A DNA stretch of 64,000 nucleotides from Patescibacteria group bacterium. Its GTDB lineage: Bacteria; Patescibacteriota; Minisyncoccia; Minisyncoccales; Staskawiczbacteraceae. The translations under genes and the position numbers were made by a program. Below, piece by piece: positions 1 through 61,257 of this stretch. The stretch spans positions 93,537 through 157,536 of the forward strand of contig JAHJTG010000016.1 of assembly GCA_018829965.1 (NCBI GenBank), written 5' to 3'. Position 1 is the first letter of the stretch. Each line of letters starts with the position of its first letter. Under the pieces are notes generated by a model. That model was not told the origin of the DNA. It saw only the letters and a program-made list of their open reading frames with translations, and did not search any database.

Positions 1-2004
1 CCAGAAAGAATTTCAATGCCTGATATTGATTTGGATTTTACTGACCGACGCAGAAATGAGGTTATAAATTATATCGGCCAGAAATATGGCAAAGACCATG
101 TTGCTCAAATTATTACATTTGGAACTATGGCCGCCAGAGCTGTTATTAGAGATGTCGGCAGAGCATTAGCTATCCCCTATAGTTATTGCGACAGAATAGC
201 AAAAATGATTCCCTTTGGTATGTCTTTAAAAGAGGCGCTTGATGGCGTAAGCGAATTTAAAGAACTTTATGAAAGCGATGCTGAAGCAAAAAGATTAATT
301 GATTTGGCAAAAAATCTTGAAGGAGTTGCCCGCCACGCTTCAACTCATGCCTGCGGTGTTGTTATTTCTGAAAAACCTTTAACCGATTACGTCCCTTTGC
401 AACATCCGACTCAAGATGACGAAACTATTGTTACTCAATATGAAATGCATGCCATTGAAGATTTAGGACTTTTAAAAATGGACTTATTGGGTTTGAAAAA
501 TTTAACTATTATTGAAGATTGTTTAGCGCGTATTTATCAGATTTATGGCAAATCAATTCAAGTTGATAACATTCCCGCAGACGATGAAAAAACCTACAAA
601 CTTTTTCAAGAAGCGAACACAATAGGTATTTTCCAATTAGAATCATCAGGAATGCAAAATTATTTAAAACAATTAAAACCAACTAGTTTTGATGATATTG
701 TGGCAATGGTTGCTCTATATAGACCGGGACCGATGCAATTTATTCCTGATTTTATCAAAGGAAAACATAAAAAGAAAAAAATAGAATATTTGCATCCTAA
801 ATTACAACCTATTTTAGAAAGCACCTACGGCATTTGCGTTTACCAAGAACAATTAATGCAGATCGCCCAGCATTTAGCCGGATTTTCTTTATCCGAAGCC
901 GATGTTTTAAGGAAAGCAATCGGGAAAAAAATAAATGATCTACTCCAAGCTCAAGAACAAAAGTTTATTTCTGGCTGTATCAAAAATGAAGTGCCTAAAA
1001 AAACCGCTCAAGAACTTTGGCAATGGATTTTACCTTTTGCCTCTTATGGATTTAATAAAAGTCACAGCGTGGGTTACGCCACGATTGCCTGCCAGACAGC
1101 TTATTTGAAAGCTCATTACCCTGTTGAATTTATGGCAGCTCTTTTAACTTCTGAAAAATCAGACATTGAAAGAATCGCTGTCCTAATAAAAGAATGCCAA
1201 AAAATGGGAATCCCTGTTTTACCGCCAGACGTTAACGAAAGCTTTAGAAATTTTTCTGTAATTCCAAATGAAAATAAAATACGTTTTGGATTGCTGGCGA
1301 TAAAAAATGTCGGCGAAAATATAGTTGAAGCAATTTTAGCAGAAAGAAAAGCCAAAGGAAATTTTAAATCAATGTATGATTTTATTTCCCGAATACAATC
1401 CAAAACCTTAAACAAGAAATCGTTTGAAAGTTTGATAAAAACCGGAGTTTTTGATAAATTAGAGGATAGGAGCAAGCTTTTATACAATATGGAGGATATA
1501 TTGGAAGCTAATCGGGAAATCAAGCAAAACATGAATAATAACCAAACAAGTCTCTTTGCAAATTCCTCTTCATATAATCCCTCTGTATTAAGATTGAAAG
1601 AAGCTCAAAATATATCTCTAAACGACCAACTAAATTGGGAAAAAGAACTTCTAGGCCTTTACATCTCTGCCCACCCTTTAGATAGCTTTAAATCTGTTTT
1701 AGAAAAAAACTCTTATCCCCTATCAAGGCTAGACAATGACGTAGTCGGCAAGCTGGTAAAAATCGGCGGGGTGATATCAACAATCAAGAGGATTATAACA
1801 AGGAACGGAAAGCCGATGCTTTTTATGAGCCTTGAAGATTTAACGAATAAGGTTGAGGTAGTTGTTTTCCCAACAGTTATTGATAGAAATCCCACTGTTC
1901 TTCAAGAAAATAAAATCGTGTTTGTAAAAGGCAAAGTTGACAACAGAGATGGCGAGATAAAAGTTATCGCAGATGAAATAGAAGAAATTATAAACACGGA
2001 TTAA
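1..2004 (+). CDS. dnaE: DNA polymerase III alpha subunit, C-terminal ~660 aa (gene starts upstream of the window)
   Basis: Frame is open to the window edge. Motifs LLKMDLLGLKNL, YRPGPMQFIP, GFNKSHSVGYA and a C-terminal OB-fold-like region. Confidence 0.9.
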   Translation, partial: PERISMPDIDLDFTDRRRNEVINYIGQKYGKDHVAQIITFGTMAARAVIRDVGRALAIPYSYCDRIAKMIPFGMSLKEALDGVSEFKELYESDAEAKRLIDLAKNLEGVARHASTHACGVVISEKPLTDYVPLQHPTQDDETIVTQYEMHAIEDLGLLKMDLLGLKNLTIIEDCLARIYQIYGKSIQVDNIPADDEKTYKLFQEANTIGIFQLESSGMQNYLKQLKPTSFDDIVAMVALYRPGPMQFIPDFIKGKHKKKKIEYLHPKLQPILESTYGICVYQEQLMQIAQHLAGFSLSEADVLRKAIGKKINDLLQAQEQKFISGCIKNEVPKKTAQELWQWILPFASYGFNKSHSVGYATIACQTAYLKAHYPVEFMAALLTSEKSDIERIAVLIKECQKMGIPVLPPDVNESFRNFSVIPNENKIRFGLLAIKNVGENIVEAILAERKAKGNFKSMYDFISRIQSKTLNKKSFESLIKTGVFDKLEDRSKLLYNMEDILEANREIKQNMNNNQTSLFANSSSYNPSVLRLKEAQNISLNDQLNWEKELLGLYISAHPLDSFKSVLEKNSYPLSRLDNDVVGKLVKIGGVISTIKRIITRNGKPMLFMSLEDLTNKVEVVVFPTVIDRNPTVLQENKIVFVKGKVDNRDGEIKVIADEIEEIINTD

Positions 2005-2075
2005 TACGGATTTTAGCGGATTAATACTAATAAAAACCATCCGCATAAATCTGTCTTATCCGCATAAATCAGCGT
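2001..2075. repeat. Arm-inverted array of short degenerate words (CGGATTA... then ...ATCCGCATAAAT)
   Basis: Left arm acggattaatacggattttagcggattaat and right arm catccgcataaatctgtcttatccgcataaatcagcg are roughly reverse-complementary. Fills the dnaE-thrS spacer. Confidence 0.6.
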
Positions 2076-2078
2076 CTT

Positions 2079-3809
2079 ATGAACATAGAAACAATTCGTC
2101 ATTCATTGGCTCATATTATGGCTTATGCCATTCAAGAACTTTATCCGAAAACAAAATTCGGAATCGGCCCGGCAGTAGAAAACGGGTTTTATTACGATAT
2201 TGAAACTCAAAAACCGATAAGGCCAGAGGAATTGTCAAAGATTGAGGAAAAAATGAAAGAGCTAATTAAACAAGACATCAAGTTCAAGAAAAAACTAACC
2301 AATAAAGCCCAAGCGAAAAAGATATTTAAGAGCCAGCCGTATAAGCTGGAGCTTATCAAGGAACTCAAAGAAAAGAATGCCACTATCTACGAATCAGGCG
2401 ATTTCATTGATTTGTGTAAAGGACCGCATATAAAGTCTGGTAAGGAGATAACTCCTGATGCTTTTAAATTAACAAGGATTGCCGGAGCTTATTGGAAAGG
2501 CAGCGAAAAGAATAAAATGCTGACCCGCATTTACGGATTGGCTTTTGCTTCTAAAAGAGAATTGATTGATTATTTAAACAACCTTGCTGAGGCAGAAAAG
2601 AGAGACCATAGGATTATCGGGCAAAAATTAGACTTATTTGTTTTTTCTGATTTAGTTGGACCAGGCCTTCCTCTTTTTACATTCAAAGGCGCCACCATTT
2701 TAAAAGAGATAAAAGATTATTGCAACGAACTTCAAAATGAAATCGGCTACCAGGAAGTACAAACTCCCAACATGAATAGAGCCGAACTCTTTAAAATTTC
2801 TGGCCATTATGAAAAATTCAAAGACGACATGTTTAAAGTTGTTTCACATTATACAGAAGAAGACTATTATCTAAAACCGATGAACTGCCCTCAACATACG
2901 CAGATATATGCTTCGAAACCAAGAAGCTATAAAGACCTGCCTATAAGAATTGCTGATTTTGCCCAACTTTATAGAGACGAAAAAACAGGGGAACTTTCTG
3001 GCCTTACGCGTCTGCGTGGATTTGCCCAGGATGACGGCCATTCCTTTTGCAAAGAAGATCAGATAAAAGATGAGTTTAAGTCTGTACTTTCTGTTATTGA
3101 GAAAGCAATGAAAACTTACGGGATGAATTATAAGATAAGATTTTCACTATGGGATCCGAAACATCCCGAAAAATATTTGGGCGATACTAAAATTTGGAAA
3201 AAATCGCAACAAATGCTTGAAGAAATCTTAATTGAAAACAAAATTGAATATTTCAGAGCAATCGGAGAAGCAGCTATGTACGGCCCGAAAATGGATTTAA
3301 TATCAAAAGATTCTTTAGGAAGAGAATGGCAGATATCAACTATCCAATTAGATTTCATTATGCCTCAGAGGTTCGGCTTAAAATATGTTGACTCTGACGG
3401 AAAAGATAAAACTCCGGTCATGATACACCGGGCAATAGTCGGCTCTCCGGAAAGATTCTTCGGCATTCTGATTGAACATTACGCGGGCAGTTTTCCTGTT
3501 TGGCTTTCCCCTATTCAAGCTTGGGTTGTGCCAGTGGGAGATAATCACAAAAAATATGCCAAAGAAATTTGCGAGAAATTATTAAATGAAAAAATAAGAG
3601 CGGAGATAAAAGACGACAATAATACTATTTCAAAAAAGATTAGAGAGGGGGAAATACAAAAAATCCCTTATCTTTTAATTGTTGGTGATAAAGAAATTAA
3701 ATCAGGTTCCGTAGCAGTAAGGGAAAGAAAGAAAGGAGATGTCGGTATGATAAAATTTGCTCAATTTATTGAACAAATTAAAAAAGAAATAGAGACCAAG
3801 AAATCCTAA
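2079..3809 (+). CDS. thrS: Threonine--tRNA ligase lacking the N-terminal TGS domain
   Basis: 576 aa. Starts at editing-domain motif RHSLAHIMA. Class II core YRDEKTGELSGLTRLRGFAQDDGH, HRAIVGSPERF, and a C-terminal anticodon-binding domain. Confidence 0.95.
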   Translation: MNIETIRHSLAHIMAYAIQELYPKTKFGIGPAVENGFYYDIETQKPIRPEELSKIEEKMKELIKQDIKFKKKLTNKAQAKKIFKSQPYKLELIKELKEKNATIYESGDFIDLCKGPHIKSGKEITPDAFKLTRIAGAYWKGSEKNKMLTRIYGLAFASKRELIDYLNNLAEAEKRDHRIIGQKLDLFVFSDLVGPGLPLFTFKGATILKEIKDYCNELQNEIGYQEVQTPNMNRAELFKISGHYEKFKDDMFKVVSHYTEEDYYLKPMNCPQHTQIYASKPRSYKDLPIRIADFAQLYRDEKTGELSGLTRLRGFAQDDGHSFCKEDQIKDEFKSVLSVIEKAMKTYGMNYKIRFSLWDPKHPEKYLGDTKIWKKSQQMLEEILIENKIEYFRAIGEAAMYGPKMDLISKDSLGREWQISTIQLDFIMPQRFGLKYVDSDGKDKTPVMIHRAIVGSPERFFGILIEHYAGSFPVWLSPIQAWVVPVGDNHKKYAKEICEKLLNEKIRAEIKDDNNTISKKIREGEIQKIPYLLIVGDKEIKSGSVAVRERKKGDVGMIKFAQFIEQIKKEIETKKS

Positions 3810-3998
3810 ATCCCAAACCCTAAACTCTAAATAAGCCCAAATTCCAAAACCCCAAATCCAAAAGTGTTTATAATTATAAGCGAGGATGGAAAAGAAAAAT
3901 TTATTTTTATTTTTCAACCGAGCGAAATAATTATGTGGCAACGCCACAATAATTTAGATATTTGGATTTTGAATTTGTTTAGAATTTAGAGTTTAAAA
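3801..3998. repeat. Composite intergenic palindrome: AAATCCY heptamer arm, AGCGAGG...CCGAGCGA core element (3871-3952), TTTAGRR heptamer arm
   Basis: Read directly: aaatcctaaatcccaaaccctaaactctaaat (3801-3863), then tttagatatttggattttgaatttgtttagaatttagagttt (3953-3998) in inverted orientation. Confidence 0.7.
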
Positions 3999-4003
3999 AA
4001 CTT

Positions 4004-5641
4004 ATGCCTCAATTATCGCAAGCAACCAAAGATCTTCTGTCGCAATATCGTTCCGGAGATAAAGTTAATCAACTCCCAGAAGGAGTAACCACTGTTCATG
4101 TAGATGAAGTCGCAGCAAAAGTCGCTGTTTTCTATGAAAAAATAAGAGGGATTATTGATTGGAGAGAAGAGCATCTTCTAAAGAGAGGGGCTATACAGAG
4201 GACGTTAAAAAGACATTTTTTTGTAGGTATTGATATCCTCCAGGAAAAATTGACCCGCGAATCTATCGCCGAGCCTTTGGTCTTAGAATTAATACGCGGC
4301 GGGCATTATCCAAATGATAAAATTCCAGAAACGAAGATAACTGACGTTCAAAAAATAATTGAAAAATATATTTTTATTCTGAAGAATATACCTCAAGCCG
4401 AAAGCGGACAAGACTCCTTGCATTTTTACAATTGGCTTTTATCAATTGCGGCCTGCGAAATTGAAGAAACCCTTAGCTCCTCTTACAAAGAAAGAGCCCT
4501 TATCTCCTATATGTACGAATTAATGAAAGAACGCATTGTTCTAAATGAAGGAGCTCTCGCTATAAAACCGCTTAAGGAGGAAGAAAAAAACGTCCAAATA
4601 TACATCGCCGTCCAAAGAGCTCTCTTCAAGCTTGATGCGCCAGTAATAAGCTACCATTTATTGAAATACAAATATCCGGATTGGAGAGATATAGGACAAG
4701 AAAAATTGCTGGAAGCCGCAAAAAATATGCTCTTGTTGGAAAAAAAGATAGAAAGAAATTTATCGCACCCCTTATCGGGCAAGTTTTATCAAATTTGTGA
4801 AAAATATGACACCCCATACTTGCTTTTAGGAGACATTTTATCTGAAGAGAATCCCGAAGAGCTCTCTAAAAAAATAGCAGAACCGGAAGCTATGGAGAGT
4901 TTAATTAAAAATACCTACAACAAAAGACTATCTACTCTTAAAACCAGGGTTCATCGCGCCGCTTTTTACTCAACACTTTCTGTTCTATTGACTAATGCTT
5001 TTTCAGTTCTGATTTTAGAAATACCAGTAGCAAAATTAATCTACGGCTTTTTCAGCAACTCCCCTTTTCTTACAATATCAGTGGATATTTTAGGACCAAC
5101 ATTCTTAATGTTCTTAATGGTAGCCACAATTAAACCGCCGACGAAAAATAATCTGAACATTGTAATAATGGAAACAATGAAAATTATTTATCAAAAAGAA
5201 AAGCAGGATGTTTATGAAGTAAGACATTCTCGACAAAAGGGACTTATCATGAAATCAATTATTGGTCTTATTTATCTTTCTGTAGCTTTAGTCTCTTTTG
5301 GAGCCATCTATTGGATTTTCTATCTTGCTAAATTCCCTATAACTTCAGCGGTAATCAATATTATGTTTATAGCTATAATTATGTTCACTGGACTAGCTAT
5401 CAGACGAAAAAGTGAAGAGCTCACGGTTGAAGAGGCAACGCCGGGTTTCTTGGGTTTTATATTTGATATTCTTTCCTTGCCAATTGCCAGCACGGGCCAG
5501 TGGCTATCTAACAAATGGAAAAAATACAATATTATCTCCGCCTTCTTCAGCGCGTTGATAGATCTGCCGTTTATGACATTTGTGAGGTTTATAGAACAAT
5601 GGAGATATTTCCTAAAAGAGAAAAAAGAAAAAATGCACTAA
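4004..5641 (+). CDS. Hypothetical protein: soluble N-terminal half plus C-terminal polytopic membrane domain
   Basis: 545-aa ORF with several hydrophobic helices after about aa 320. No motif I recognise. Confidence 0.5.
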   Translation: MPQLSQATKDLLSQYRSGDKVNQLPEGVTTVHVDEVAAKVAVFYEKIRGIIDWREEHLLKRGAIQRTLKRHFFVGIDILQEKLTRESIAEPLVLELIRGGHYPNDKIPETKITDVQKIIEKYIFILKNIPQAESGQDSLHFYNWLLSIAACEIEETLSSSYKERALISYMYELMKERIVLNEGALAIKPLKEEEKNVQIYIAVQRALFKLDAPVISYHLLKYKYPDWRDIGQEKLLEAAKNMLLLEKKIERNLSHPLSGKFYQICEKYDTPYLLLGDILSEENPEELSKKIAEPEAMESLIKNTYNKRLSTLKTRVHRAAFYSTLSVLLTNAFSVLILEIPVAKLIYGFFSNSPFLTISVDILGPTFLMFLMVATIKPPTKNNLNIVIMETMKIIYQKEKQDVYEVRHSRQKGLIMKSIIGLIYLSVALVSFGAIYWIFYLAKFPITSAVINIMFIAIIMFTGLAIRRKSEELTVEEATPGFLGFIFDILSLPIASTGQWLSNKWKKYNIISAFFSALIDLPFMTFVRFIEQWRYFLKEKKEKMH

Positions 5642-5642
5642 T

Positions 5643-5735
5643 CTAATCGCTGATAAGACGCTGATTTCTACGCTGATAAAAGGCTGATTCAGCGTAAATT
5701 CTGCGTATATTTCAGCGTTAACTCAGCGGAAATAA
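5643..5735. repeat. Arm-inverted array of GCTGAT / ATCAGC words
   Basis: cgctgataagacgctgatttctacgctgataaaaggctgat followed by tcagcgtaaattctgcgtatatttcagcgttaactcagcgg. Confidence 0.6.
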
Positions 5736-5737
5736 GT

Positions 5738-7363
5738 ATGTCTAATTCAATAAAATTATTTTTAACCATAACAGTAATCTATTCTGGATTAGTAATGGGT
5801 TTATCCGTTTCCGCTCAAACATTAATCCCAGAAAAAGCGCTTACTGCAACTGCAAATTCACAAAGCTTAGAAATTAAAGACCAAAATTTATTGCCAGATA
5901 GTCCTTTTTACTTTCTGAAAGAATGGAGTCGCGGAATCCAATCTCTTTTTACCTTCAATGATGTGAAAAAAGCCGAACTGAAAGAAAAGTTTGCCAATGA
6001 AAAGCTGCTAGAGCTACAAAAACTGATAGATAACAACGCCAGTCAAAAGATAATAGAAAAGGCAGCTGACAAGTACGGAGCAGAAATGGAAAAGATAAAA
6101 CAAGCTGTAGATAAAATAAAAGATAAAACAGAAGATAATTCTAAGGTAGAAGAATTTCTAGACAAGTTCACCAAACAAGCGCTTTTACACGAAGAGATCC
6201 TCCAAAAATTAGAAGATCAGGTTCCAACCGAGGTTTTTCAAAAGATAGAAGAAGCGCGGAAGAATCACATTGATAAATTTTGGGAAGTAATGCAAAAACT
6301 GGAAAACAACAAAGAAGAGATTAAAAATAGAATAGAAAATAAAATACAGGAACAATCGGGTCAAGAACTTTTAGGAATCAAATCATTGGAAATATTAAGC
6401 GGTTTAGAAGAAAATGCGTCATCGGAAGATATTAAAAAGATGATATGGGGAATAAAGCAAAACGCCATTCAAAATCTAGGACAAAAAATAGAAAACTTAA
6501 CAATAGAGGAACAAGAAACACTTAAAAGCTACATAAGTAATCCAGCTGGCGACAAAACAAGAAGACTCCAAGCGATAGAAACGTTAAAGTCAGAAATAAC
6601 AAATAATCCGCCAATTAAAGAAAAGCTTATGGAGTCCCGCCAAAATGTATTAGAAAAAATAGGAGAAAAAAATCAAACGAGAAATTGCCCAATTCTTTCA
6701 ACCCCAGGACTAGATTTTTGCACCAATGGCAAAATAGCGACAGAAAAAAATGATGCTGGTTGCGTTAATTTTGAATGCACCGAAGAAACACAGGACGGAA
6801 ATACAGGAAATAATAAATGCTCCCCTATTTGCTTAAACATTAATACCGGATCAGAGGGTTGGTATAACTCATGCGACAATGAATTAATAAAATATGACAG
6901 CTGTAAAGATTGTAAAGTTACTTGTAAAAATATCGGGGCTAACTCTGAAGGATTATACAATTCTTGCTCTGGAATTTTAATTAAAATGGAGAAATGCGGC
7001 GAGAAACCAGCAATATGCGCGCAGGTTTACGACCCCGTCTGCGGGAAAAATGGAAAAAATTATAATAATGAATGTTTTGCAAAAAATGCCGGTAAAGAAA
7101 TTGCCTATAAAGGAATTTGCAAATTAGAGTGCCAAAAAGATACTGATTGTCCGCAAAAATGCGCTGTTAGTTTCGTTGCCGCAAACTGCAATACAAAAGT
7201 AAAATGCGTAAATAATAAATGCGTTACAATAGAAGTAAAAAGCACAGGGAATGAAAACACTGGTAAATCAACCAACTCAACTAATTCAAGTGAAGGATGG
7301 GAACCGCGAGAAGGAAGCAATGAACCAGAGGTACCATTTGTTGACACAGGCGAACAGGAATAA
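5738..7363 (+). CDS. Secreted coiled-coil protein (DUF5667-like N-terminus) with a Cys-rich C-terminal region containing a Kazal-type module
   Basis: N-terminal signal/TM segment. DSPFYFLKEWSRGIQ motif. Long Lys/Glu-rich helical region. C-terminal CAQVYDPVCGKNGKNYNNECFAKNAGKEIAYKGIC. Confidence 0.6.
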   Translation: MSNSIKLFLTITVIYSGLVMGLSVSAQTLIPEKALTATANSQSLEIKDQNLLPDSPFYFLKEWSRGIQSLFTFNDVKKAELKEKFANEKLLELQKLIDNNASQKIIEKAADKYGAEMEKIKQAVDKIKDKTEDNSKVEEFLDKFTKQALLHEEILQKLEDQVPTEVFQKIEEARKNHIDKFWEVMQKLENNKEEIKNRIENKIQEQSGQELLGIKSLEILSGLEENASSEDIKKMIWGIKQNAIQNLGQKIENLTIEEQETLKSYISNPAGDKTRRLQAIETLKSEITNNPPIKEKLMESRQNVLEKIGEKNQTRNCPILSTPGLDFCTNGKIATEKNDAGCVNFECTEETQDGNTGNNKCSPICLNINTGSEGWYNSCDNELIKYDSCKDCKVTCKNIGANSEGLYNSCSGILIKMEKCGEKPAICAQVYDPVCGKNGKNYNNECFAKNAGKEIAYKGICKLECQKDTDCPQKCAVSFVAANCNTKVKCVNNKCVTIEVKSTGNENTGKSTNSTNSSEGWEPREGSNEPEVPFVDTGEQE

Positions 7364-7376
7364 ATTATTTATAAAA

Positions 7377-7401
7377 ACAGCCCTTGAACGGGCTGTTTTT
7401 C
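7377..7401 (+). terminator. Rho-independent terminator
   Basis: acagccc-ttgaac-gggctgt stem-loop followed by a T5 run, 14 nt after the stop codon. Confidence 0.75.
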
Positions 7402-7425
7402 TATTATAATATAAGCCGTATGAAA

Positions 7426-7551
7426 CCCCGTTAGAAGTTTACAAAAATTAGATTTACTTTACTCTATTTTTTTTATAATATAATTCAATTTTAGCAAAAG
7501 AGAGTTTTCCTCTCTTTTACCGCAGAGAAATATGGCAAACTTCTAACGGGG
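7426..7551. mobile_element. MITE-like element (126 bp) with 15-bp perfect terminal inverted repeats and a 5-bp flanking direct repeat
   Basis: ccccgttagaagttt (7426-7440) versus aaacttctaacgggg (7537-7551). tgaaa lies immediately outside both ends (7421-7425, 7552-7556). Confidence 0.6.
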
Positions 7552-7564
7552 TGAAATAAATCGA

Positions 7565-8938
7565 ATGACACAAAAATATTACATAATAACTTTCGGCTGC
7601 CAGATGAATGTATCGGATTCGGAAAGAATCGCAGCGGTTTTAGAATCTATAAAATACAAACCTGTTCAGAAAATAGAACCTGCTGATTTGGTTGTAGTAA
7701 ATATGTGTTCTGTGAGACAATCAGCCGTTGACCGAGTTTTTGGTTTAAACCAAAAACTCGTCAAACTCAAAAACCACAACCCACAACTCACAACTATATT
7801 AACTGGCTGTGTTCTAAAAAAAGATGAGAAAAAATTATCCAGATTTTTTGATTACATTATCAATATTAAAGATATTGGAAAACTGCCTAAAATTTTAAGA
7901 AACAAAAATGAGGGAAAAAAAGATTACCTTAGAATAAAACCAGCGCACGTTAATAAATTTTCTGCAATAGTGCCGATTATGACTGGATGTAATAATTTTT
8001 GCGCCTACTGCGTTGTCCCATACACTCGTGGAAAGGAAGTTTCAAGGCCGGCCAAAGATATTATCTGCGAGATTAAAAACTTAATTAAGCGCGGATACAA
8101 AGAAATCTGGCTGATGGGACAAAACGTGAACTCTTACGGAGTTCAACGCGAAACTGATGCGAAACAAAACGCGAAACTGATGCGAAACAAAATAAACTTT
8201 CCTAAATTATTAAAGATGGTAAATAATATTCCAGGAAACTTTTGGATAAGGTTTACCTCTTCCCATCCTAAACCCAGCACTAGGGCAAAGCTCAGTGCTG
8301 GACTAGTCCCGTACCGAAACAAAGTTTCTGGTACGGGGGATTTTTCTTGGAATGAATTAATCAATATTATAGCTAAAGGAGAGAAAATCACCCCCTACCT
8401 TAATCTTCCGGTCCAAGCTGGTGACGATAAGGTTCTGAAAAGAATGAATAGGCCTTATACAATAAAACAATATATAAATATCATTAAGAAAGTCGGAAAG
8501 AAAATTCCTGATATTTGTCTTTCAACAGATATAATTGTCGGCTTCCCCGGAGAAACAAAAAAACAATTTCAGAATAGTGTTAAATTGTTTAAAGAGATAA
8601 ATTACGACATGGCATATATCTCAGAATATTCTCCAAGACCAAAAACAATGTCCGCTAAAATGAAAGACGATATTTCCATAGAAGAAAAATCTGAAAGAAA
8701 AAGAATTCTAAATAATATCTTAAAAGAAACTGCGTTGGGAAAAAACAAACGATACGTCAATAAAGTTGTAGAAGTTTTACCAATGGAATATAAGAACGGA
8801 CTCTTATTTGGTAAATCTTGGCACTATAAAACAGTGAAGTTTAAAGGGAATAAAAACCTGATCGGAAAATTCGTTAAAGTAAAAATTACTAACGCTTTGC
8901 CTTGGATACTGGAAGGAAAAATAGAATATAGAATTTAG
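7565..8938 (+). CDS. miaB: tRNA-i6A37 methylthiotransferase MiaB (radical SAM)
   Basis: N-terminal UPF0004 domain (YIITFGCQMN), CNNFCAYC radical-SAM cluster, C-terminal TRAM domain. Carries two internal repeat insertions. Confidence 0.9.
   Translation: MTQKYYIITFGCQMNVSDSERIAAVLESIKYKPVQKIEPADLVVVNMCSVRQSAVDRVFGLNQKLVKLKNHNPQLTTILTGCVLKKDEKKLSRFFDYIINIKDIGKLPKILRNKNEGKKDYLRIKPAHVNKFSAIVPIMTGCNNFCAYCVVPYTRGKEVSRPAKDIICEIKNLIKRGYKEIWLMGQNVNSYGVQRETDAKQNAKLMRNKINFPKLLKMVNNIPGNFWIRFTSSHPKPSTRAKLSAGLVPYRNKVSGTGDFSWNELINIIAKGEKITPYLNLPVQAGDDKVLKRMNRPYTIKQYINIIKKVGKKIPDICLSTDIIVGFPGETKKQFQNSVKLFKEINYDMAYISEYSPRPKTMSAKMKDDISIEEKSERKRILNNILKETALGKNKRYVNKVVEVLPMEYKNGLLFGKSWHYKTVKFKGNKNLIGKFVKVKITNALPWILEGKIEYRI
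8273..8338 (+). repeat. 66-nt twin-hairpin insertion, in frame inside miaB
   Basis: ccagcact...agtgctgg and cccgtacc(gaaac aaa gtttc)ggtacggg. Splits the conserved SSHPK|DF motif and is translated PSTRAKLSAGLVPYRNKVSGTG. Confidence 0.7.
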
Positions 8939-8970
8939 GATTTAGGATTTAGAATTTAGAATAAAAAATC

Positions 8971-9882
8971 ATGGATAATAAAAACAAAAAAATTATTGTT
9001 ATCGTTGGGCCGACGGCTTCTGGAAAAACCGATCTATCTATTAAACTCGCCAAAAAATTCAAGGGCGAGATAATTTCTGCTGATTCAAGGCAGGTCTATA
9101 AAGGAATGGATATTGGTACTGGAAAAGTGACCAAAAAAGAAATGAGAGGTATCCCCCATTATCTTTTAGATGTTATATCGCCTAAAAAAAGATTTGATGT
9201 TGCTCAATATAAGAAGCTGGCAGAGGAAGCAATCAATAGGATATATAAGAAAAATAAGCTTCCTTTTTTAGTCGGTGGCACTGGTTTTTACATCCAAGCC
9301 GTAATTGATAATATTTCAATGCCTAAAATTAAGCCAGACTGGAAATTAAGGAAAAAGCTGGAAAAGAAGCCTATTCCCGAGCTATATAAAATGCTGGTTA
9401 AATTAGACCCTAATAGAGCCTCTAATATTGATAAAAATAACCCCAGGCGTCTAATAAGGGCCCTAGAAATCGTTCTAAAATCAAAGAGGCCTGTGGGTCC
9501 GCTAATCCCTCAAAAACCACGATTTAAGGCATTATTCTTAGGAGTAAAAAAAGACCAAAAAGAATTAAAAAACTTGATTGAAAAACGACTATTAAAACGA
9601 CTAAAAAGCGGAATGATAAACGAAGTTAAAAAACTCCATCGCTCCGGAGTTTCTTGGAAACGATTAGAAGAATTCGGCTTAGAATACCGTTTTGTCGCAC
9701 AATACCTGCAAAAGAAATTAACTTACAATGAAATGATCCAAAAACTGGAAAAAGAGATAGAACATTACGCCAAAAGACAAATGACTTGGTTTAAGCGCGA
9801 TAAGCGAATTAAATGGATTAAGAATATAAAAGAAGCGGATAAATCAGTTAAAAATTATCTAATATTGACAGATAAAAAATAA
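8971..9882 (+). CDS. miaA: tRNA dimethylallyltransferase
   Basis: P-loop GPTASGKT, SADSRQVYKGMDIGTGK, typical length of 303 aa. Confidence 0.92.
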   Translation: MDNKNKKIIVIVGPTASGKTDLSIKLAKKFKGEIISADSRQVYKGMDIGTGKVTKKEMRGIPHYLLDVISPKKRFDVAQYKKLAEEAINRIYKKNKLPFLVGGTGFYIQAVIDNISMPKIKPDWKLRKKLEKKPIPELYKMLVKLDPNRASNIDKNNPRRLIRALEIVLKSKRPVGPLIPQKPRFKALFLGVKKDQKELKNLIEKRLLKRLKSGMINEVKKLHRSGVSWKRLEEFGLEYRFVAQYLQKKLTYNEMIQKLEKEIEHYAKRQMTWFKRDKRIKWIKNIKEADKSVKNYLILTDKK

Positions 9883-10063
9883 AGCTATATAATATTTGAA
9901 TAGAAGTAGACTATCTGAAGATAGAATTGTTATTTAAAAATTTTTTTGGAATAGGAGCGATATAATGAAAAAGAAAGTGTTCCAAATATGGTACCAAGTA
10001 TTTCTACATGAATCATTGATGCGATTCCGATCGGCGCTAATAATAGGAGAAGGTGATAAAACC

Positions 10064-10345
10064 ATGCCAAAAAAATCTTGCAGGAAGGATTGGCGAAAAA
10101 TTATTATCCTCATGCCGACAGGCGACCCTAAGACTCGTTTTTCGATTGGGTTTTATAAAGACGACATATATAAACTATCAACTGCCACCAGAAAGGTTAG
10201 AAATGGTCCATTTGGAATGAGGATGGGTCCAGAGAACTGCGGATTCTTTATAGTAAGCAATAAAAAAGATAGACGACTTGGGTTAAAGTTTGTGGAGTAT
10301 GCCGATATAGATGATAAAACTTATTCTAAATTGCCTCTTTATTAG
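10064..10345 (+). CDS. Small hypothetical protein (93 aa from the ATG at 10064)
   Basis: ggagaaggtg Shine-Dalgarno-like sequence 8 nt upstream of the ATG. The longer ORF from 9965 lacks one. Confidence 0.35.
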   Translation: MPKKSCRKDWRKIIILMPTGDPKTRFSIGFYKDDIYKLSTATRKVRNGPFGMRMGPENCGFFIVSNKKDRRLGLKFVEYADIDDKTYSKLPLY

Positions 10346-10367
10346 GTGGGATAGCATACATAGGACT

Positions 10368-10403
10368 AAAAACCAGTGCAGAATTTTTTGCTCTGGTTTT
10401 TTT
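10368..10403. terminator. Bidirectional terminator between convergent genes
   Basis: aaaaaccag...ctggttttttt stem flanked by an A-run and a T-run. Lies between the 10345 stop and the gatB stop. Confidence 0.7.
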
Positions 10404-11925
10404 ATTTGAGAATATTTTTCAACAATTTTTGAACCATTTCGGGATTAGCTTTGCCTCGGGTTTCTGCTATAACCTTTCCTGCTAAAAACTGCAAAGCATT
10501 CTGTTTTCCTTTTTTAAAGTCGTCTACTGCACTTTGGTTTTTTTCGATTACACTTTTAATCGCTTTTTCAATTTCTTTTTCGTCGCTAATCTGACTTAAG
10601 CCTTTTTCTTCAATAATCTGTGAAGGATCTTTACCAGTTTGCAACATTTGCACTAAAACTTCTTTCGCTGTTTTGCTAGTTATTTTTCCGTCGTTTATAA
10701 GAATTATAAATTCAGAGAAGTCTTCCGGAGTTATCGCGCATTCTTTCTCTGAAAATTGTTCTCCTAATAAGCCTTGTAGGTCTGTAATGATATAATTACT
10801 AGCTAATTTAATTAAAGACTGTTTTTTATCTTTTTTTGCCTCTGTTTCAATCTCGCTGATAACTTTTTCAAAATATTCTCCTAGGTCTTTGTTATCGGTA
10901 AAGATTTCTATAGATTTTGCATCCAAGTCATACTCTTTTTCAAATCTTTTTCTCTTATTCGCCGGCAATTCTGGGATTTCAGCCTGAACGCTGTTTATAA
11001 GTTGTGAGTCCAATATGATAGGTGGTATATCTGGCTCTGGAAAATACCTATAATCATGCGCTTCTTCCTTCTCCCTCTGACTGAATGTCTCCTCTTTGTT
11101 GTCATCCCAGCCACGTGTTTCCTGAATTACTTTTTTCCCGTCGTCTAAAACCTCTGTTTGCCTTTTAATTTCGTAATTAACTGCCTTCTCCGCCGCTTTA
11201 AAAGAGTTTAAATTCTTTATTTCCACCTTTGTCCCGAGTTTAGGATTTTGGACTTTCGATTTTGAATTTGTTTCGGATTTAGAATTTAGGATTTCGGATT
11301 TGAGTGGAAGTAAGCTTATGTTTACTTCGACTCTTAGTTGTCCTTTTTCCATATCAGCATCGGAAACCTCCAGATATCTTAAAATTAATTGCAGCTCCTC
11401 GGCAAAACGTCGTACTTCTAATCCTGATTTCAAATCAGGCTCTGTTACTAGTTCCATTAAGGGCATGCCTGCTCGATTATAATCAACTAAAGAATAGTCC
11501 ACGCCTTTTGGATGTAAAAGACGACCAGTATCTTCTTCTAGGTGTATCCTCGTAATTCTAATTTTCTTTAAATATAACTCTGAAAAATCTTGAGATACTG
11601 GTATTTCTAAAAAGCCTTTTTCACAAAACGGTTTATCATATTGAGAAATCTGATAACCTTTTGGCAAATCTGGATAGAAATAGTTTTTCCTATCAAACTT
11701 TGACTCTTCATTAATCTTGCAGTTTAAAGCTAATCCTGTTTTTACAACTTTTTTTATTGCTTCTTCATTAGCAACCGGAAGCGTCCCCGGGTGCGCCATA
11801 CAAATCGGGCAAATATTAAAATTCGGCTTTTTCTCATCCGGATCGTTCTTACAAGAACAAAACATTTTAGAGTTAGTTTTCAACTCCACGTGTATTTCTA
11901 ATCCTATTGTTGTTTTGTAATTCAT
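10402..11925 (-). CDS. gatB: Asp/Glu-tRNA(Asn/Gln) amidotransferase subunit B
   Basis: MNYKTTIGLEIHVEL, CPICMAHPGTLP, C-terminal GatB/YqeY domain. Contains a heptamer-array insertion at 11239-11301. Confidence 0.93.
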   Translation of the reverse strand: MNYKTTIGLEIHVELKTNSKMFCSCKNDPDEKKPNFNICPICMAHPGTLPVANEEAIKKVVKTGLALNCKINEESKFDRKNYFYPDLPKGYQISQYDKPFCEKGFLEIPVSQDFSELYLKKIRITRIHLEEDTGRLLHPKGVDYSLVDYNRAGMPLMELVTEPDLKSGLEVRRFAEELQLILRYLEVSDADMEKGQLRVEVNISLLPLKSEILNSKSETNSKSKVQNPKLGTKVEIKNLNSFKAAEKAVNYEIKRQTEVLDDGKKVIQETRGWDDNKEETFSQREKEEAHDYRYFPEPDIPPIILDSQLINSVQAEIPELPANKRKRFEKEYDLDAKSIEIFTDNKDLGEYFEKVISEIETEAKKDKKQSLIKLASNYIITDLQGLLGEQFSEKECAITPEDFSEFIILINDGKITSKTAKEVLVQMLQTGKDPSQIIEEKGLSQISDEKEIEKAIKSVIEKNQSAVDDFKKGKQNALQFLAGKVIAETRGKANPEMVQKLLKNILK

Positions 11926-12413
11926 TTTCTTTCTAAAATTACGAATGAATAATCAAACTTATTCTTTTCGTCAGCTTTATTGTCTGTTCTTTTTACTTCC
12001 CTCCATTCCTTTATATCAAATTCTGGGAAATATGTATCGCCTTCGAAACTGTGATGTATAAAGGTTAAATAAAGGCGGTTGGCTAATGGCAGAAGTTGCT
12101 TATACACCAATGCTCCTCCGCAAATCATTACTTCGTTTTCATTTTTTACCATATCTAAAAGTTCTTCTATAGAGTGCGCGACGAAGCAACCTTCTGGCGG
12201 AACATAACTTAAGTCGTTGTTTAAAATAATATTCTTTCTGCTTGGCAGGGGTTTTTCTCCAATTGATTTGAAAGTGTTCAAACCCATAACAATAGGTTTA
12301 TTCAGCGTGGTTTCTTTAAAATATTTAAAGTCGTCTGGCAGATGCCATGGCAAAGAGTTTTTGTTTCCAATCACTCTATTCTCTGCTACTGCTGATATTA
12401 TTGAAAGTATCAT
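11922..12413 (-). CDS. folA: Dihydrofolate reductase
   Basis: MILSIISAVAENRVIGNKNSLPW start. The upstream part of the ORF track covers a repeat element. ATGA overlap with the gatB start. Confidence 0.85.
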   Translation of the reverse strand: MILSIISAVAENRVIGNKNSLPWHLPDDFKYFKETTLNKPIVMGLNTFKSIGEKPLPSRKNIILNNDLSYVPPEGCFVAHSIEELLDMVKNENEVMICGGALVYKQLLPLANRLYLTFIHHSFEGDTYFPEFDIKEWREVKRTDNKADEKNKFDYSFVILERK

Positions 12414-12420
12414 ATATTTT

Positions 12421-12507
12421 ATAATTACAAGTGAAGGAGGAATATATGGAAACGAGTTTCTATATATTCCGACCGAACGACTAATTATATAAATTGCGGA
12501 GCAATTT
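12421..12507. repeat. AGCGAGG...CCGAGCGA-family modular hairpin element (variant GTGAAGG...CCGAACGA)
   Basis: ataattacaagtgaaggaggaatatatggaaacgagtttctatatattccgaccgaacgactaattatat, plus a second small hairpin. Confidence 0.7.
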
Positions 12508-13332: not shown

Positions 13333-13340
13333 GTTTTTTT

Positions 13341-13400
13341 AATTATAATTTCTAGCGAGGGAGGAATGAAAATAAATTTTCATTCCAACCGAGAGACAAA
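13341..13400. repeat. AGCGAGG...CCGAGAGA-family modular hairpin element
   Basis: aattataatttctagcgagggaggaatgaaaataaattttcattccaaccgagagacaaa. Confidence 0.7.
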
Positions 13401-15841: not shown

Positions 15842-15908
15842 AGTTTAGGTTTTAGGTGTTAGGGTTTAGGGTCTAGTTAATTATACGCTAAACGCTATAC
15901 CTTATACG

Positions 15909-16996: not shown

Positions 16997-17017
16997 ACAC
17001 TTTTTGTTTCACAAAAG

Positions 17018-17149
17018 AAACTCTAAATTCTAAGCTCTAAACTCTAAACAATATCAAAACTCTAAATTCAAATAATTAAAACGTTTTTAGATTTTGAATA
17101 TTTAATATTTGGATTTATTTAGGATTTAGGATTTGGGATTTAGGATTTT
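17018..17149. repeat. Arm-inverted heptamer arrays (CTCTAAA-type arm, then TTTAGGA-type arm) forming a ~130-bp imperfect palindrome
   Basis: Left arm 17018-17074, right arm 17084-17149. Fills the secE-nusG spacer. Confidence 0.7.
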
Positions 17150-17156
17150 ATTAATA

Positions 17157-35390: not shown

Positions 35391-37319
35391 TTACTGCCTG
35401 CTCTTAAATATCTCCAAGAATGCCCGATGGGAGATTTCAACCCTCCCCTTCTCCTTTAATAGCTTTTTTCCTTTCTTCTGTTTCTCTAAAAGTTTTCTTT
35501 TTCTTGTCACATCTCCTCCGTATAGATAACCGGTGACATCCTTTCTTCTGGCCCTGATTGTTTCACGGGCTAAAACCTTGCCTTGAACTACTGCCTGCAA
35601 AGCAACTGAGAATTGTTCCGGAGGCAAAACATCTTTTAATTTTTCTACCAAAAACTTTCCTTCCCTATATGCTTCGTCTTCGGAAACAATCTTTGAAAAC
35701 GCTTCTTCTGAGTGTCCTGCAATCCAAATTTCCATTTTTACCAAATTACCTGGCCTAAAACCTAAAACCTTATAGTTCATTGAAGCATAACCTTGGCTTA
35801 CGCTTTTTACTTTATCGTAAAGATTGCTAATAATCCCGCGCAAAGGCACTTCATAAATAATAATTGCCCTATCTTGGCCAAAATATTGGGTATCAACATA
35901 GATTCCTCCGGTATTTTTTAAAATATCAGAAAGCTTGCTTATGTAAACACTCGGGGTAATAAGCTCTAAAGACACCCAAGGCTCTTCAGTTTTTTGGATA
36001 AAGGTAGCATCCGGCCAATCCGAAGCTGAATAGATAAATTCTTCTTTGCCCTTTTGATTAAAGATTTTATAAACAACCGATGGCGTTGAAATCACTAGAT
36101 TAAGACCGAATTCTCTTCTTAGTCTTTCAGAAGCAATCTCAACGTGTAAAGTACCTAAAAATCCGCATCTGTATCCTCTGCCTAAAGCTTCTTTTGTTTC
36201 GGGCTCAAATATAAAAGATGGGTCGCTTAACTTTAGTTTTGCCAATGCGTCTTTTAATAAATCAAAGTCGCCAGCATCCTGCGGATAAAAACTGGCAAAA
36301 ACCATTGGTCTTGGTTCTAGATAACCATGCAGGGGTTGGATTTCAGAGGCTTTTAATTTAAACTGCTGGCTTGAAACAATTGTATCGCCGACCCTTACCT
36401 TGCCTGGCTCTTTAATTCCTGTAGCAATATATCCGATTTCACCTGCTGAAATCTTTCCTTGAGCAACAGGTCCTGGCATAAAATATCCTATTTCTTTTAT
36501 CTCTGCTTCAGTATTCGTAACCATCAACCTTACTCTCTCGCCTGCGTTAATTTCACCATCAACAACTCTGATAAAAGCAATGACTCCTTTATAGGCATCA
36601 TAATCTGAATCAAAAATTAAAGCCCTAAAAGGTTTTTGAGTATTTATTTCTGGAACAGGAACTTCTTCAATAATTTTACTTAAAAGAGTATCTACATTAG
36701 CTCCTGTTTTCCCAGAGATTCTAAGAATTTTCTCCGGATCAATGCTTAAAAGATTAGCGATTTCTAAAGCGCTTTCTTCAATTCTGGCATCTGGCGCATC
36801 TATTTTATTCACCACAGGAATTATTACTAAATTTTGTTGTTTAGCCAACTCTAAATTAGCTAATGTCTGGGCTTGAATGCCTTGAGTGGCATCAACCAAT
36901 AAAACTGCTCCTTCAACTGCAGCCAAAGCTCTTGAAACTTCGTAGGAGAAATCAACGTGGCCTGGAGTATCTACCAAGTTCAAAACATATTTTAAACTTG
37001 GAAACTCTAAATTCGAAGCACTAAATTCTAAACTATTGGTTTCGGATTTTGGGTTTTGGGTTTTGGGTTTATTTAGAATTTCGGATTTAGGATTTAGGAT
37101 TTGCGAATGATATATCATTCGTACTGGTTTAAGTTTAATTGTAATCCCCTTTTCTCTTTCTAAGTCCATTCTATCCAAAAACTGCGGTTTCATTTTACCC
37201 GGCTTTACCGCTCCAGTTATTTCTAAAAATCTATCGGCTAAGGTAGATTTCCCATGGTCAATATGGCTAATAATTACAAAATTACGTATATTCTCCTGCA
37301 TATTTATATTTTTTACCAA
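35391..37319 (-). CDS. lepA: Elongation factor 4 (LepA)
   Basis: NFVIISHIDHGKSTL, DTPGHVDF, NKID, LepA C-terminal domain. Contains a ~37-codon heptamer-array insertion. Confidence 0.93.
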   Translation of the reverse strand: MVKNINMQENIRNFVIISHIDHGKSTLADRFLEITGAVKPGKMKPQFLDRMDLEREKGITIKLKPVRMIYHSQILNPKSEILNKPKTQNPKSETNSLEFSASNLEFPSLKYVLNLVDTPGHVDFSYEVSRALAAVEGAVLLVDATQGIQAQTLANLELAKQQNLVIIPVVNKIDAPDARIEESALEIANLLSIDPEKILRISGKTGANVDTLLSKIIEEVPVPEINTQKPFRALIFDSDYDAYKGVIAFIRVVDGEINAGERVRLMVTNTEAEIKEIGYFMPGPVAQGKISAGEIGYIATGIKEPGKVRVGDTIVSSQQFKLKASEIQPLHGYLEPRPMVFASFYPQDAGDFDLLKDALAKLKLSDPSFIFEPETKEALGRGYRCGFLGTLHVEIASERLRREFGLNLVISTPSVVYKIFNQKGKEEFIYSASDWPDATFIQKTEEPWVSLELITPSVYISKLSDILKNTGGIYVDTQYFGQDRAIIIYEVPLRGIISNLYDKVKSVSQGYASMNYKVLGFRPGNLVKMEIWIAGHSEEAFSKIVSEDEAYREGKFLVEKLKDVLPPEQFSVALQAVVQGKVLARETIRARRKDVTGYLYGGDVTRKRKLLEKQKKGKKLLKEKGRVEISHRAFLEIFKSRQ

Positions 37320-44508: not shown

Positions 44509-44544
44509 AATAATTTTAATTTTCAATTCCCAATTTTCAATTTT

Positions 44545-60306: not shown

Positions 60307-61257
60307 TTACTTAAGGTATTGTATTTCCTCTTTTAATTCTATTCCAAACTTTTCTTTTATTTTTTTCTTAATAATTTTTATTAATTTTACCACATCTTTT
60401 GTTTTCGCTCCACCTAAATTAACAATAAAGTTTGCGTGTTTTTCAGAAATTTTTGCCTTGCCTATCACTTTTCCTTTTAATCCGCACTTATCAATTAAAT
60501 ACGACGTTGGAATTCTACTTCCTTTATTAAATTCGTTAAGTTCTGGAAATTTTTTAAGTAAGTTTTTATTTTTTATTTTTTTAGCATAATTTTTAAAAAC
60601 ACAGCCGGCTGATGGAAAATTCAAAGGATGATTTCGTTTTCTATAGTCGGAGAATCTTTTTATTTCTTTTTGAATTTCTTCTTTATCCCTTTTTTTCAAT
60701 TCTAATATGACGGATAAAATAACAAGGTTTTTTTTCTTTTTAAAAACACTGCTTTTATTACCGAACCTGCATTCTTTATTAGAAAAAGTTTTAATCTTTA
60801 AGGTTTTAATGTCTAAAGCTTTTATACTATGAACGCTATCTGCCATTGAAGACCCAAAGGCTCCAACATTCCCATAAACAGCAGCGCCAACAGTACCCGG
60901 GATACCAACCGCCCATTCTAAGCCGGTTAATTCTTTGTCTGTTGAAGTATTAACTAATTCTCTTAATTTTGTTCCCGCGCCAGCAATAATTTTATTTTTT
61001 TGAAACTTGAAACTTGAAACTTGAAACTTGATTACTAGTCCTTTATACCCTTTATCCGAGACCAGAATATTGCTTCCGCTACCTAAAATAAAAAACGGCA
61101 AATTAAATAATTTTGCCGCTTTTATGGCTTTGATCAAACCTTTTTGATTTTTGGCTCCAAAAAAAAACTTCGCCTGCCCACCAATTTTGAAAGTGGTGTG
61201 CCCAGCCATTAATACATTTTCTTTTATCCCATGTAATATTTTTTTGATGTCTTCCAT
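60307..61257 (-). CDS. murB: UDP-N-acetylenolpyruvoylglucosamine reductase
   Basis: HTTFKIGGQAKFF, ILGSGSNILVSD, AGAG, PSAGCVFKN motifs. Confidence 0.9.
   Translation of the reverse strand: MEDIKKILHGIKENVLMAGHTTFKIGGQAKFFFGAKNQKGLIKAIKAAKLFNLPFFILGSGSNILVSDKGYKGLVIKFQVSSFKFQKNKIIAGAGTKLRELVNTSTDKELTGLEWAVGIPGTVGAAVYGNVGAFGSSMADSVHSIKALDIKTLKIKTFSNKECRFGNKSSVFKKKKNLVILSVILELKKRDKEEIQKEIKRFSDYRKRNHPLNFPSAGCVFKNYAKKIKNKNLLKKFPELNEFNKGSRIPTSYLIDKCGLKGKVIGKAKISEKHANFIVNLGGAKTKDVVKLIKIIKKKIKEKFGIELKEEIQYLK
61001..61031. repeat. Heptanucleotide tandem repeat (TGAAACT) x4.4 inside murB
   Basis: tgaaact tgaaact tgaaact tgaaact tga. Translated KFQVSSFKFQ. Confidence 0.85.

Follow-up and report, generated by a model that had tools for sequence, protein, structure and literature searches.

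The stretch of DNA analysed here (hereafter the window) comprises 64,000 nucleotides from a Patescibacteria group bacterium (NCBI GenBank assembly GCA_018829965.1, contig JAHJTG010000016.1, positions 93,537 to 157,536 of the forward strand). It has a GC content of 35% and is tightly packed with genes, those before about 10.3 kb being encoded on the plus strand and the remainder on the minus strand. Pfam searches confirmed thrS, miaB, miaA, gatB, rplK, nusG, dCMP deaminase, gyrB, pheS and lepA as named in an earlier description made from the letters alone (the sequence-only reading), and secE was located at 17157-17366 on the minus strand. Between and within these genes occur short tandem arrays of a degenerate heptamer, TTTAGGR on one strand and AAATCCY on the other. 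Comparison of the arrays at the nucleotide level indicates that they are copies of one composite dispersed element, which is the subject of the present analysis.

The sequence-only reading had proposed that the intergenic spacers are built from arm-inverted arrays of this heptamer, and arrays were present wherever it had placed them: as a C-type and a G-type array in the thrS spacer, as a palindrome between secE and nusG, and as single arms at the miaB stop codon and directly upstream of the dCMP deaminase start codon (Table 1). The onset of the repeat within thrS was also borne out. The C-arm extends over the final two codons of the gene and its stop (...AAG AAA TCC TAA), so that the element itself provides the latter, and the corresponding G-arm ends 5 nt upstream of the start codon of the next open reading frame (ORF), at 4004. 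Similarly, the block at the end of miaB encodes the terminal residues of MiaB (IEYRI) together with the stop, leaving 8 nt up to the start codon of miaA, while the secE-nusG palindrome lies between the secE stop codon, which ends at 17157, and the nusG start at 16996.

The arrays are too regular for random spacer DNA, as had been claimed. The degenerate two-unit pattern TTTRGRRTTTRGRR, with at most one mismatch, has 31 matches in the window, whereas 100 dinucleotide shuffles average 4.85 and never exceed 13. Tandem Repeats Finder (TRF) reports 14 non-redundant period-7 arrays against none in a block-shuffled copy, seven being the commonest tandem period in the window, and autocorrelation of the intergenic DNA has a local peak at lag 7 (z = 4.1). 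At the three loci with paired arms the folds are likewise more stable than those of dinucleotide-shuffled sequence, with z-scores of -5.2 (thrS spacer), -2.6 (secE-nusG) and -2.2 (lepA copy); a different hairpin, nested in the thrS loop, accounts for much of the first of these. The outcome that the sequence-only reading had named as refuting it, no difference from shuffled sequence in autocorrelation and fold energy, was therefore not observed. The AAATCCN-family motif is clustered in blocks, at about seven loci in the 64 kb. As a description of the spacers in general the proposal went too far, since the family occurs in four of the 42 spacers of at least 30 nt. The placement of the arrays exactly between genes is real for the spacer copies but incomplete, as full arms also lie within the reading frames of gatB and lepA. 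The likeness to telomeres holds for the spelling of the heptamer (TTTAGGG/TTTAGGA) and is otherwise superficial; a telomere repeat was ruled out, the arrays being internal to a 159-kb contig, present in both orientations and in part translated.

Table 1. Heptamer arrays in the window, with coordinates, strand and composition.
Feature	Coordinates	Strand	Description
C-arm of thrS-spacer palindrome	3800..3863	+	4 AAATCCN, linker AAATAAG, 4 CCCAAAT-type units; nhmmer model positions 2-65, E = 1.7e-11
Loop of thrS palindrome with nested foreign hairpins	3864..3950	+	AGCGAGG...CCGAGCGA element at 3879-3925 with AT-rich flanks; GTGGCAACGCCAC hairpin at 3934-3948
G-arm of thrS-spacer palindrome	3951..3998	+	TTTAGAT...TTTAGAA TTTAGAG; reverse-strand profile match 3994-3952
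Single G-type block	8921..8962	+	TAGAATT/TAGGATT, 5.9 units
Full C-arm without G-arm, in frame in gatB	11239..11302	-	encodes LKSEILNSKSETNSKSKVQNPK
Short block, about 4 units	15843..15876	-	ACCCTAA-type in sense; abuts dCMP deaminase start codon
Full palindrome secE-nusG	17012..17152	-	C-arm 17148-17086, G-arm 17085-17018
Element in frame in lepA	37002..37103	-	C-arm 37103-37040, one G block 37033-37002; encodes QILNPKSEILNKPKTQNPKSETNSLEFSASNLEF
Heptamer array of another family, 4.6 units	7764..7795	+	AACTCAC-type, in frame in miaB; ~32-nt module, not AAATCCN
Heptamer array, 4.9 units	44512..44544	-	AATTTTC on plus strand; in frame near N-terminus of DHH-family protein (KIENWELKIKI)
Perfect (TTGAAAC) array, 4.6 units	61000..61031	-	in frame in murB (IKFQVSSFKFQ)

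A picture of open-ended heptamer arrays overlooks a higher-order architecture that is common to them. An arm of about 63 nt consists of four AAATCCN units, a linker AAA(T/C)AAA, four (T/C)(T/C)CNAAA units and a terminal AAAC, and the full element is a palindrome of about 130-140 nt made of a C-arm, a short loop and an inverted G-arm. The arms at thrS, gatB, secE-nusG and lepA, which are non-homologous loci, align unit for unit in the sense orientation with the linker at unit 5. The G-arm mirrors this layout, and a single odd unit, GTGCTTC or GAGCTTC, is frequent in its outer block; it is seen as AAGCACT at 37002-37033 and AAGCTCT at 17018-17049 and again as AAGCACG in the loci L137, L003, L007 and L033 of other genomes. 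Exactly four units, linker and four units were counted, as judged by eye, in 13 of 17 arms from nine genomes. In all the full palindromes the A/C-rich arm precedes the T/G-rich arm in the 5' to 3' direction. Four long arms occur in the window besides several short blocks, and truncated forms include a C-arm alone (gatB), a C-arm with the outer G block (lepA) and a four-unit block alone (the rplK-dcd spacer; L001:152-183). Other palindromes are nested in the loop or an arm of some copies (the thrS spacer; gatB of L107).

Searched against 1.94 Mb of fetched DNA, an nhmmer profile of the arm was matched over its full length 18 times at E < 0.01, a number that includes the seven training copies and the duplicate of the window in L001 and hence does not represent 18 independent loci; block-shuffled DNA gave none. 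Block shuffling served as the control because a reversed database is an unclean null, AAATCCT read backwards being its own rotation. The copies outside the training set score better in the true than in the reversed orientation by three to four orders of magnitude (6e-9 against 1.5e-5 for L013), and the layout is therefore informative beyond its periodicity.

In the coding copies the element is accommodated by the reading frame. The LepA insert lies between KPVRM and YVLNLVDTPGH, a position at which the β2-β3 hairpin of the G domain has its tip and most homologues possess 4-8 residues, and includes the peptide ILNPKSEILNK; in the AlphaFold2 model of LepA, residues 69-100 are coil with a predicted local distance difference test score (pLDDT) below 50, between strands 60-66 and 103-110. 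The GatB insert, with the peptide SEILNSKSETNSK, replaces a loop or turn of 4-6 residues in most homologues. The coding copies are predicted to be translated as a hydrophilic, disordered loop. None of the three frames of a perfect AAATCCT or TTTAGGA array is free of TAA or TAG. Wherever a unit junction falls in frame in the gatB and lepA copies, G or A stands in place of the T of TAA, whereas the out-of-frame junctions of these copies and all the junctions of the intergenic copies retain T. This replacement is the signature of selection for translatability.

The element is widespread in related genomes. The β2-β3 loop of LepA carries it in six homologue clusters (P0001, P0007, P0017, P0019, P0060, P0066), with confirmation at the DNA level in L083, L084 and L085. 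The GatB loop occupied in the window carries it also in L013 and L107, and a second GatB turn in L137 and L013, only a short AAATCCG block being found there in L093 and L100. It occurs further in RNase HII (L003, L007, L033) and in ThrS (L013), and intergenic palindromes are found in L135 and L085; full palindromes beyond the window were identified in L135, L085, L007, L033 and L003. An IMG/VR contig (L166) with one strict-pattern match adds one more contig to the family and is uninformative on a vector. A reverse-transcriptase gene (RVT_1, 389 aa) was observed at L084:793-1962, directly upstream of the element-bearing lepA.

Orthologous sites are occupied irregularly. On a neighbour-joining tree of LepA the insert lies on three separate branches, and the nearest relatives of the window protein are without it. 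In these closest relatives (P0002, P0006, P0009; L167-L169) the lepA site is a clean short loop, and their 22-kb syntenic loci contain almost no copies. The spacer between thrS and the next ORF measures 194 nt in the window and 13 nt in L007; in L005 there is none and the genes overlap, while in L003 it holds an unrelated arm-inverted ACGGAT/ATCCGT array. Comparison of the same spacer in relatives thus showed that the heptamer element is not conserved there. Given the empty orthologous sites in relatives, the elements have been gained and lost, are dispensable for the operons and have proliferated specifically in the lineage of the window.

Between the ThrS of the window and its counterparts in Candidatus Staskawiczbacteria and other Parcubacteria metagenome-assembled genomes, identity does not exceed 72-75%, and from its sequence the organism is taken to be a bacterium of the candidate phyla radiation (CPR) that has no close sequenced relative. 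Genome and metagenome scans yielded no relative above 75% identity for ThrS or 65% for GatB, and recent gain or loss is therefore undatable. A 159-kb metagenome contig in ENA is identical to the window, and an identical ThrS is encoded elsewhere only by L001, which is 100% the same sequence, and by the short contig L002 (Logan contig SRR6514730_104284). The latter is an independent assembly of the same strain that stops 21 nt past the thrS stop codon, within the C-arm, a break consistent with element k-mers being repeated in the genome.

The arrays are best explained, and on balance probably, as a dispersed palindromic repeat family of Parcubacteria that resembles the elements of Rickettsia and whose heptamer substructure is kept by slippage or conversion. 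The data show the architecture, its recurrence at several loci and in several genomes, its presence or absence at orthologous sites, the in-frame adaptation, the placement in disordered loops and the hairpin potential. As to the last, seven of nine tested family members fold better than shuffled sequence, and among all period-7 arrays an inverted partner within 250 nt, at 17 or more of 21 matching positions, is three times as common as a direct one (15 against five). From this we infer that copies have spread between loci and are neutral or selfish in nature. New-locus copies would arise by copy-and-paste, template switching or ectopic conversion, probably through single-strand hairpins, and would survive only where the harm is small, that is, in short operon spacers and in surface loops of proteins. 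In spacers, the all-frame stop codons of the element would merely end the upstream gene. The heptamer substructure and the uniformity within arrays may be kept by heptanucleotide slippage or by a gene-conversion bias of the kind known in other bacteria, and any effect on mRNA folding would be secondary.

The closest known parallel is provided by the Rickettsia palindromic elements (RPEs; Ogata et al. 2000), which measure about 105-146 bp and, like other small repeats, fuse in frame into proteins (PMC3184786). Like the RPEs, the present element is a dispersed palindrome of some 100-150 nt in a small, reduced genome, has no associated transposase as far as the scanned window ORFs show, and occurs both between genes and in frame in housekeeping proteins, where its translation adds a surface peptide compatible with the fold. 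A multicopy palindrome of RPE-like size is present, the gatB and lepA ORFs stay open, and homologues that are free of the insert exist. The two differ in that their sequences and host phyla are unrelated, in that the Parcubacteria arms are heptamer-periodic with a fixed layout of four units, linker and four units and with separable half- and quarter-elements, and in that the Parcubacteria element occupies the same loop of the same protein in several diverged lineages. It is treated as an analogue of the RPEs and not as one of them; homology to RPE-1 to RPE-8 is very unlikely, given the host phylum and the composition.

Several observations weigh against this explanation. No consistent target-site duplication was found at the junctions of 12 copies, one weak direct repeat of 6/7 positions in L085 being the nearest approach. 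Pfam matches of 50 window ORFs of at least 80 aa (61375-62466 and 62589-63731 being among those left unscanned) include no transposase, HUH-family or RAYT-type gene. Copies within the genome are 70-83% identical, a figure inflated by low complexity, and are no closer to one another than to copies of other genomes; they are thus old and diverged and do not suggest a recent burst. Near-perfect arrays of about 32 nt with other units fit slippage or conversion in place better than transposition of a master copy, and the recurrence in the LepA loop could reflect ancient inheritance with many precise losses. Finally, all the results are computational and come from sequence analysis.

Arrays of period 7 are a general feature of these genomes, which raises the alternative that the copies are plain heptanucleotide microsatellites, formed by slippage in place, with inverted arms arising by chance or by local template switching and without movement between loci. 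In 878 kb of other Parcubacteria loci 65 period-7 arrays were found against one in shuffles, many of them in coding regions; period 7 is the dominant tandem period there as it is in the window. Many arrays have other units and are perfect, that of murB (TTGAAAC) being one example, and a second loop of LepA carries a seven-residue-periodic peptide with lineage-specific units (such as AAATTAC, AAATTGG and AAATCTC) in 19 of 120 homologues. Heptanucleotide repeats are, according to the account of Mrázek (2007) given in PMC4679880, the most abundant class of long simple sequence repeats (SSRs) in many prokaryotes, for which slippage has been proposed (see also PMC4692102); their over-representation is known in Xanthomonas, Nostoc, Beggiatoaceae and others, and arrays that end ORFs or lie within them are reported (PMC4692102, PMC4679880). 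Independent slippage, however, does not predict a common layout of four units, linker and four units, or a common odd unit and arm length, at non-homologous loci and in distant genomes. It also leads one to expect a smooth distribution of copy numbers, whereas the lengths of the near-perfect period-7 arrays, taken from 1.57 Mb of Parcubacteria loci, peak sharply a second time at 31-34 nt (about 4.5 units). This second mode is seen in as well as outside coding regions and equals the length of the four-unit block of the element. Slippage in place is consequently regarded as an unlikely account of the whole.

The comparison with described heptanucleotide SSRs, namely the short tandemly repeated repetitive (STRR) sequences of cyanobacteria, GGGAATC and GGGGAYT of Xanthomonas and Nostoc and TAACTGA of Beggiatoaceae (PMC4692102, PMC4679880), shows both likeness and difference. 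Shared features are the 7-nt unit and its strong over-representation, a mostly intergenic position that often abuts start or stop codons, forward arrays with stops in all frames, and occasional inverted pairs and in-ORF copies. Those repeats are nevertheless open-ended, with up to 43 copies, have no reported higher-order architecture and differ in unit sequence, whereas the Parcubacteria blocks are fixed at about four units and assembled into a conserved palindrome. The present arrays are thus head-to-tail 7-nt repeats that, by their block layout and length mode, lack the open-ended copy number of slippage, and the units AAATCCN/TTTAGRR match none of the described heptamer families CCCCAGT, TTGGTCA, CAACAGT, GGGAATC and TAACTGA.

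The sequence-only reading had envisaged the spacer palindromes as long hairpins on polycistronic RNA that could act as terminators, processing sites or stability elements. In its fuller form this alternative holds that they are selected mRNA hairpins (sites for RNase III or other processing, 3'-end stabilisers or weak terminators) that tune the expression of neighbouring genes. REP/BIME elements and the heptamer arrays of cyanobacteria have been proposed to act as such hairpins. The location of copies in very short spacers of same-strand gene runs and the constant order of the C-arm 5' to the G-arm are in agreement with it, as is the folding, since the arms are inverted and seven of nine tested family members beat shuffled sequence (z -2.6 to -6.3). 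Unrelated arm-inverted arrays in other spacers of the window and of L003 suggest that a hairpin is often present there. The suggested label of slippage- or cruciform-prone DNA is a reasonable one.

The sense RNA, however, is the weaker fold. In 11 of 11 copies of known gene orientation it folds less well than the antisense (-10.8 against -26.7 kcal/mol for lepA, -20.7 against -29.2 kcal/mol for secE-nusG), the sense strand having C·A, and the antisense strand G·U, at the positions that are not Watson-Crick pairs, and selection on mRNA, which tolerates G·U, would give the opposite asymmetry. The strand bias may stem from an excess of A over T in sense strands, or hairpins may be selected against, be it in mRNA or in the template of the lagging strand. 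Furthermore, the elements are not conserved at orthologous spacers, and the same element lies in frame in gatB, lepA, RNase HII and thrS. An intrinsic terminator scan of positions 1-20000 returned 26 terminator-like sites, none of which is a heptamer element, the canonical GC-rich ones lying elsewhere. Intrinsic (Rho-independent) termination was rejected, the element having no GC-rich stem and no U-tract, and so was membership of a known structured RNA family: at E <= 1 the elements are matched by no Rfam 15 model, and the gathering threshold is reached in the window by RNase P and two tRNAs alone. A primary role in termination, processing or stability is accordingly not supported, and the mRNA-hairpin explanation is considered quite unlikely.

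The conservation of one motif family across genomes whose ThrS proteins are only about 51% identical (L013) could alternatively suggest arrays that are kept for recognition, either as a motif resembling DNA uptake signals, whose spread by biased uptake and homologous recombination would account for one insert recurring in the equivalent loop of diverged lepA and gatB genes, or as A(N)GGA sites bound by an RNA-binding protein of the CsrA kind. In Neisseria and Haemophilus, uptake sequences are likewise found in inverted pairs between genes as well as at coding sites that permit them. The same-site insert on three branches of the LepA tree, a stretch of 29 nt identical between the window and L084, and the repeated AGGA within G-arms are in line with such a role. 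Uptake signals are, on the other hand, single short motifs spaced evenly at roughly one per kb and not blocks of four plus four units at a few loci. Sliding nucleotide identity around the lepA insert is no higher than elsewhere in the G domain and gives no recombination footprint, many G units lack GGA (TTTAGAA, TTTAGAG), and the closest relatives are almost free of copies. Recognition arrays are hence a very improbable explanation.

The length mode of the period-7 arrays has no counterpart at periods 6, 8 and 9, and the units are identical within an array and different between arrays. Uniform arrays of constant length mean concerted evolution. One conceivable source is reiterative synthesis, dedicated or intrinsic to a polymerase (a reverse transcriptase or a repair polymerase), that writes modules of about 4.5 heptamers (about 32 nt) from which palindromes are built. 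Besides the length mode and the unit identity, this notion draws on the first GatB site, at which the array takes in flanking ancestral codons and is not a clean insert, and on the RVT_1 gene next to lepA in L084. Against it, the window offers no candidate enzyme with a link to the arrays, the conserved irregularities of the AAATCCN family are not expected from a reiterative writer, and the length mode is based on a few dozen arrays; it is the least probable of the explanations considered and is given very little weight. A broader proposition, itself highly doubtful, is that a length-measuring, heptamer-reiterating DNA process of Parcubacteria, polymerase-intrinsic or enzyme-driven and possibly acting on hairpins, writes or rewrites modules of about 32 nt (4.5 units), assembles palindromes and continually remodels spacers as well as surface loops of the essential proteins LepA, GatB, RNase HII, ThrS, MurB and MiaB. 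If true, the process would be a mutational mechanism that builds protein loops and not an ordinary selfish repeat.

As a dispersed palindromic repeat family, the element also invites comparison with other repeats. Like MITEs (miniature inverted-repeat transposable elements) and repetitive extragenic palindromic (REP) sequences with their BIME and REPIN assemblies, it is short, non-coding, hairpin-forming, multicopy and located in operon spacers; it differs from them in the absence of target-site duplications, of terminal inverted repeats distinct from the body and, in the window, of a cognate insertion sequence or RAYT gene. A REP stem is about 35 nt and GC-rich, with a conserved tetranucleotide head, whereas the Parcubacteria stems are AT-rich, weak and about 30-60 bp; with these AT-rich stems and no Y1 transposase among the scanned window ORFs, the element does not fall within the REP/BIME-RAYT class. 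Eukaryotic foldback transposons share with it inverted arms made of short tandem subrepeats, and mobile palindromes of organelles, such as the coding palindromes of Nematomorpha mitochondria (PMC6649704), share the in-frame position in conserved genes, but hosts, sizes and sequences differ and the likeness is architectural only. Compared with eukaryotic TTTAGGG telomeres, which share its spelling, the Parcubacteria arrays are short, degenerate and palindromic, besides being internal, bidirectional and sometimes translated, with no terminal site and no G-overhang logic.

Other repeats are present in the same DNA. A second family consists of hairpins or longer inserts whose left boundary is AGCGAGG and whose right boundary is CCGA(C)CGAGCGA; AATTAT flanks are frequent. 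Copies occur at 3879-3925 (nested in the loop of the thrS palindrome), 12417-12492, 13345-13395, 14114-14164, 39717-39858 and about 44676-44825 and at L084:12640-12700, and in reverse orientation at 51003-51104 and 60215-60285; both orientations relative to genes occur, and two long copies of about 140 nt have a common GC-rich core. A 54-nt tandem repeat (39623-39752; 2.4 copies, 91% identity) in a 247-nt spacer overlaps a long element of this type. The spacers 2005-2078, 5642-5737 and 16350-16450 and the locus L003:7726-7818 contain arm-inverted arrays whose units of 10-11 nt have a CGGAT/CTGAT core, as in (CGCTGATAAAA) x4 followed by (TTCAGCGTAAA) x4; the thrS spacer of L003 holds this type in the place taken in the window by the heptamer element. 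In pheS, at 21047-21104, a palindrome rich in GC, GTCCCGAC...TCGAGGATCCTCGA...GTCGGGAC, is found in frame (encoding DFVPMTSSSRILDGRAVGTE), and it recurs between genes at 59667-59762. In other Parcubacteria (P0021, P0102, P0103, L127), loops of LepA and GatB are filled by peptides that share its origin (EDPR/EDPS...).

Further features of the window were recorded. The switch from plus-strand to minus-strand genes, which are convergent, lies at about 10346-10401, where the cumulative GC skew also has its maximum, and may mark the replication terminus. The two longest gene-free stretches, of about 650 nt each, contain paralogous structured non-coding regions of about 170 nt (17358-17524 and 49545-49696) with long-range pairing of CCCAGTATATCA... 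with ...CTGGARGTTGTATTACTGGG and no Rfam match. The gyrB gene (18140-20779) carries a mini-intein, its Intein_splicing domain (residues 529-675) lying between the DNA_gyraseB and Toprim domains, and in SecA (55087-57576) the DEAD-like domain match covers 408 residues against a profile of 290 positions, corresponding to about 120 residues of insertions.

The best-supported description of the object is that of an RPE- or MITE-like palindrome with STRR-like heptamer arms; a literature search found no description of heptamer or palindromic repeats in Patescibacteria, and the phylum is thus one for which no earlier account was found. The genomes of the CPR are tiny and usually called streamlined, yet they carry conserved palindromic repeats that are written into essential genes of translation and replication. 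For annotation, the family explains odd low-complexity loops, differences in protein length among CPR bacteria and contig breaks at gene ends, and both the typing of strains and the study of genome dynamics in this uncultured phylum could use it as a marker. It would represent a second, independent case beside Rickettsia of selfish palindromes that coexist with proteins. The fixed block of about 32 nt, or four units, bears in addition on the preference of bacteria for 7-nt repeats and hints at a cause more specific than random slippage.

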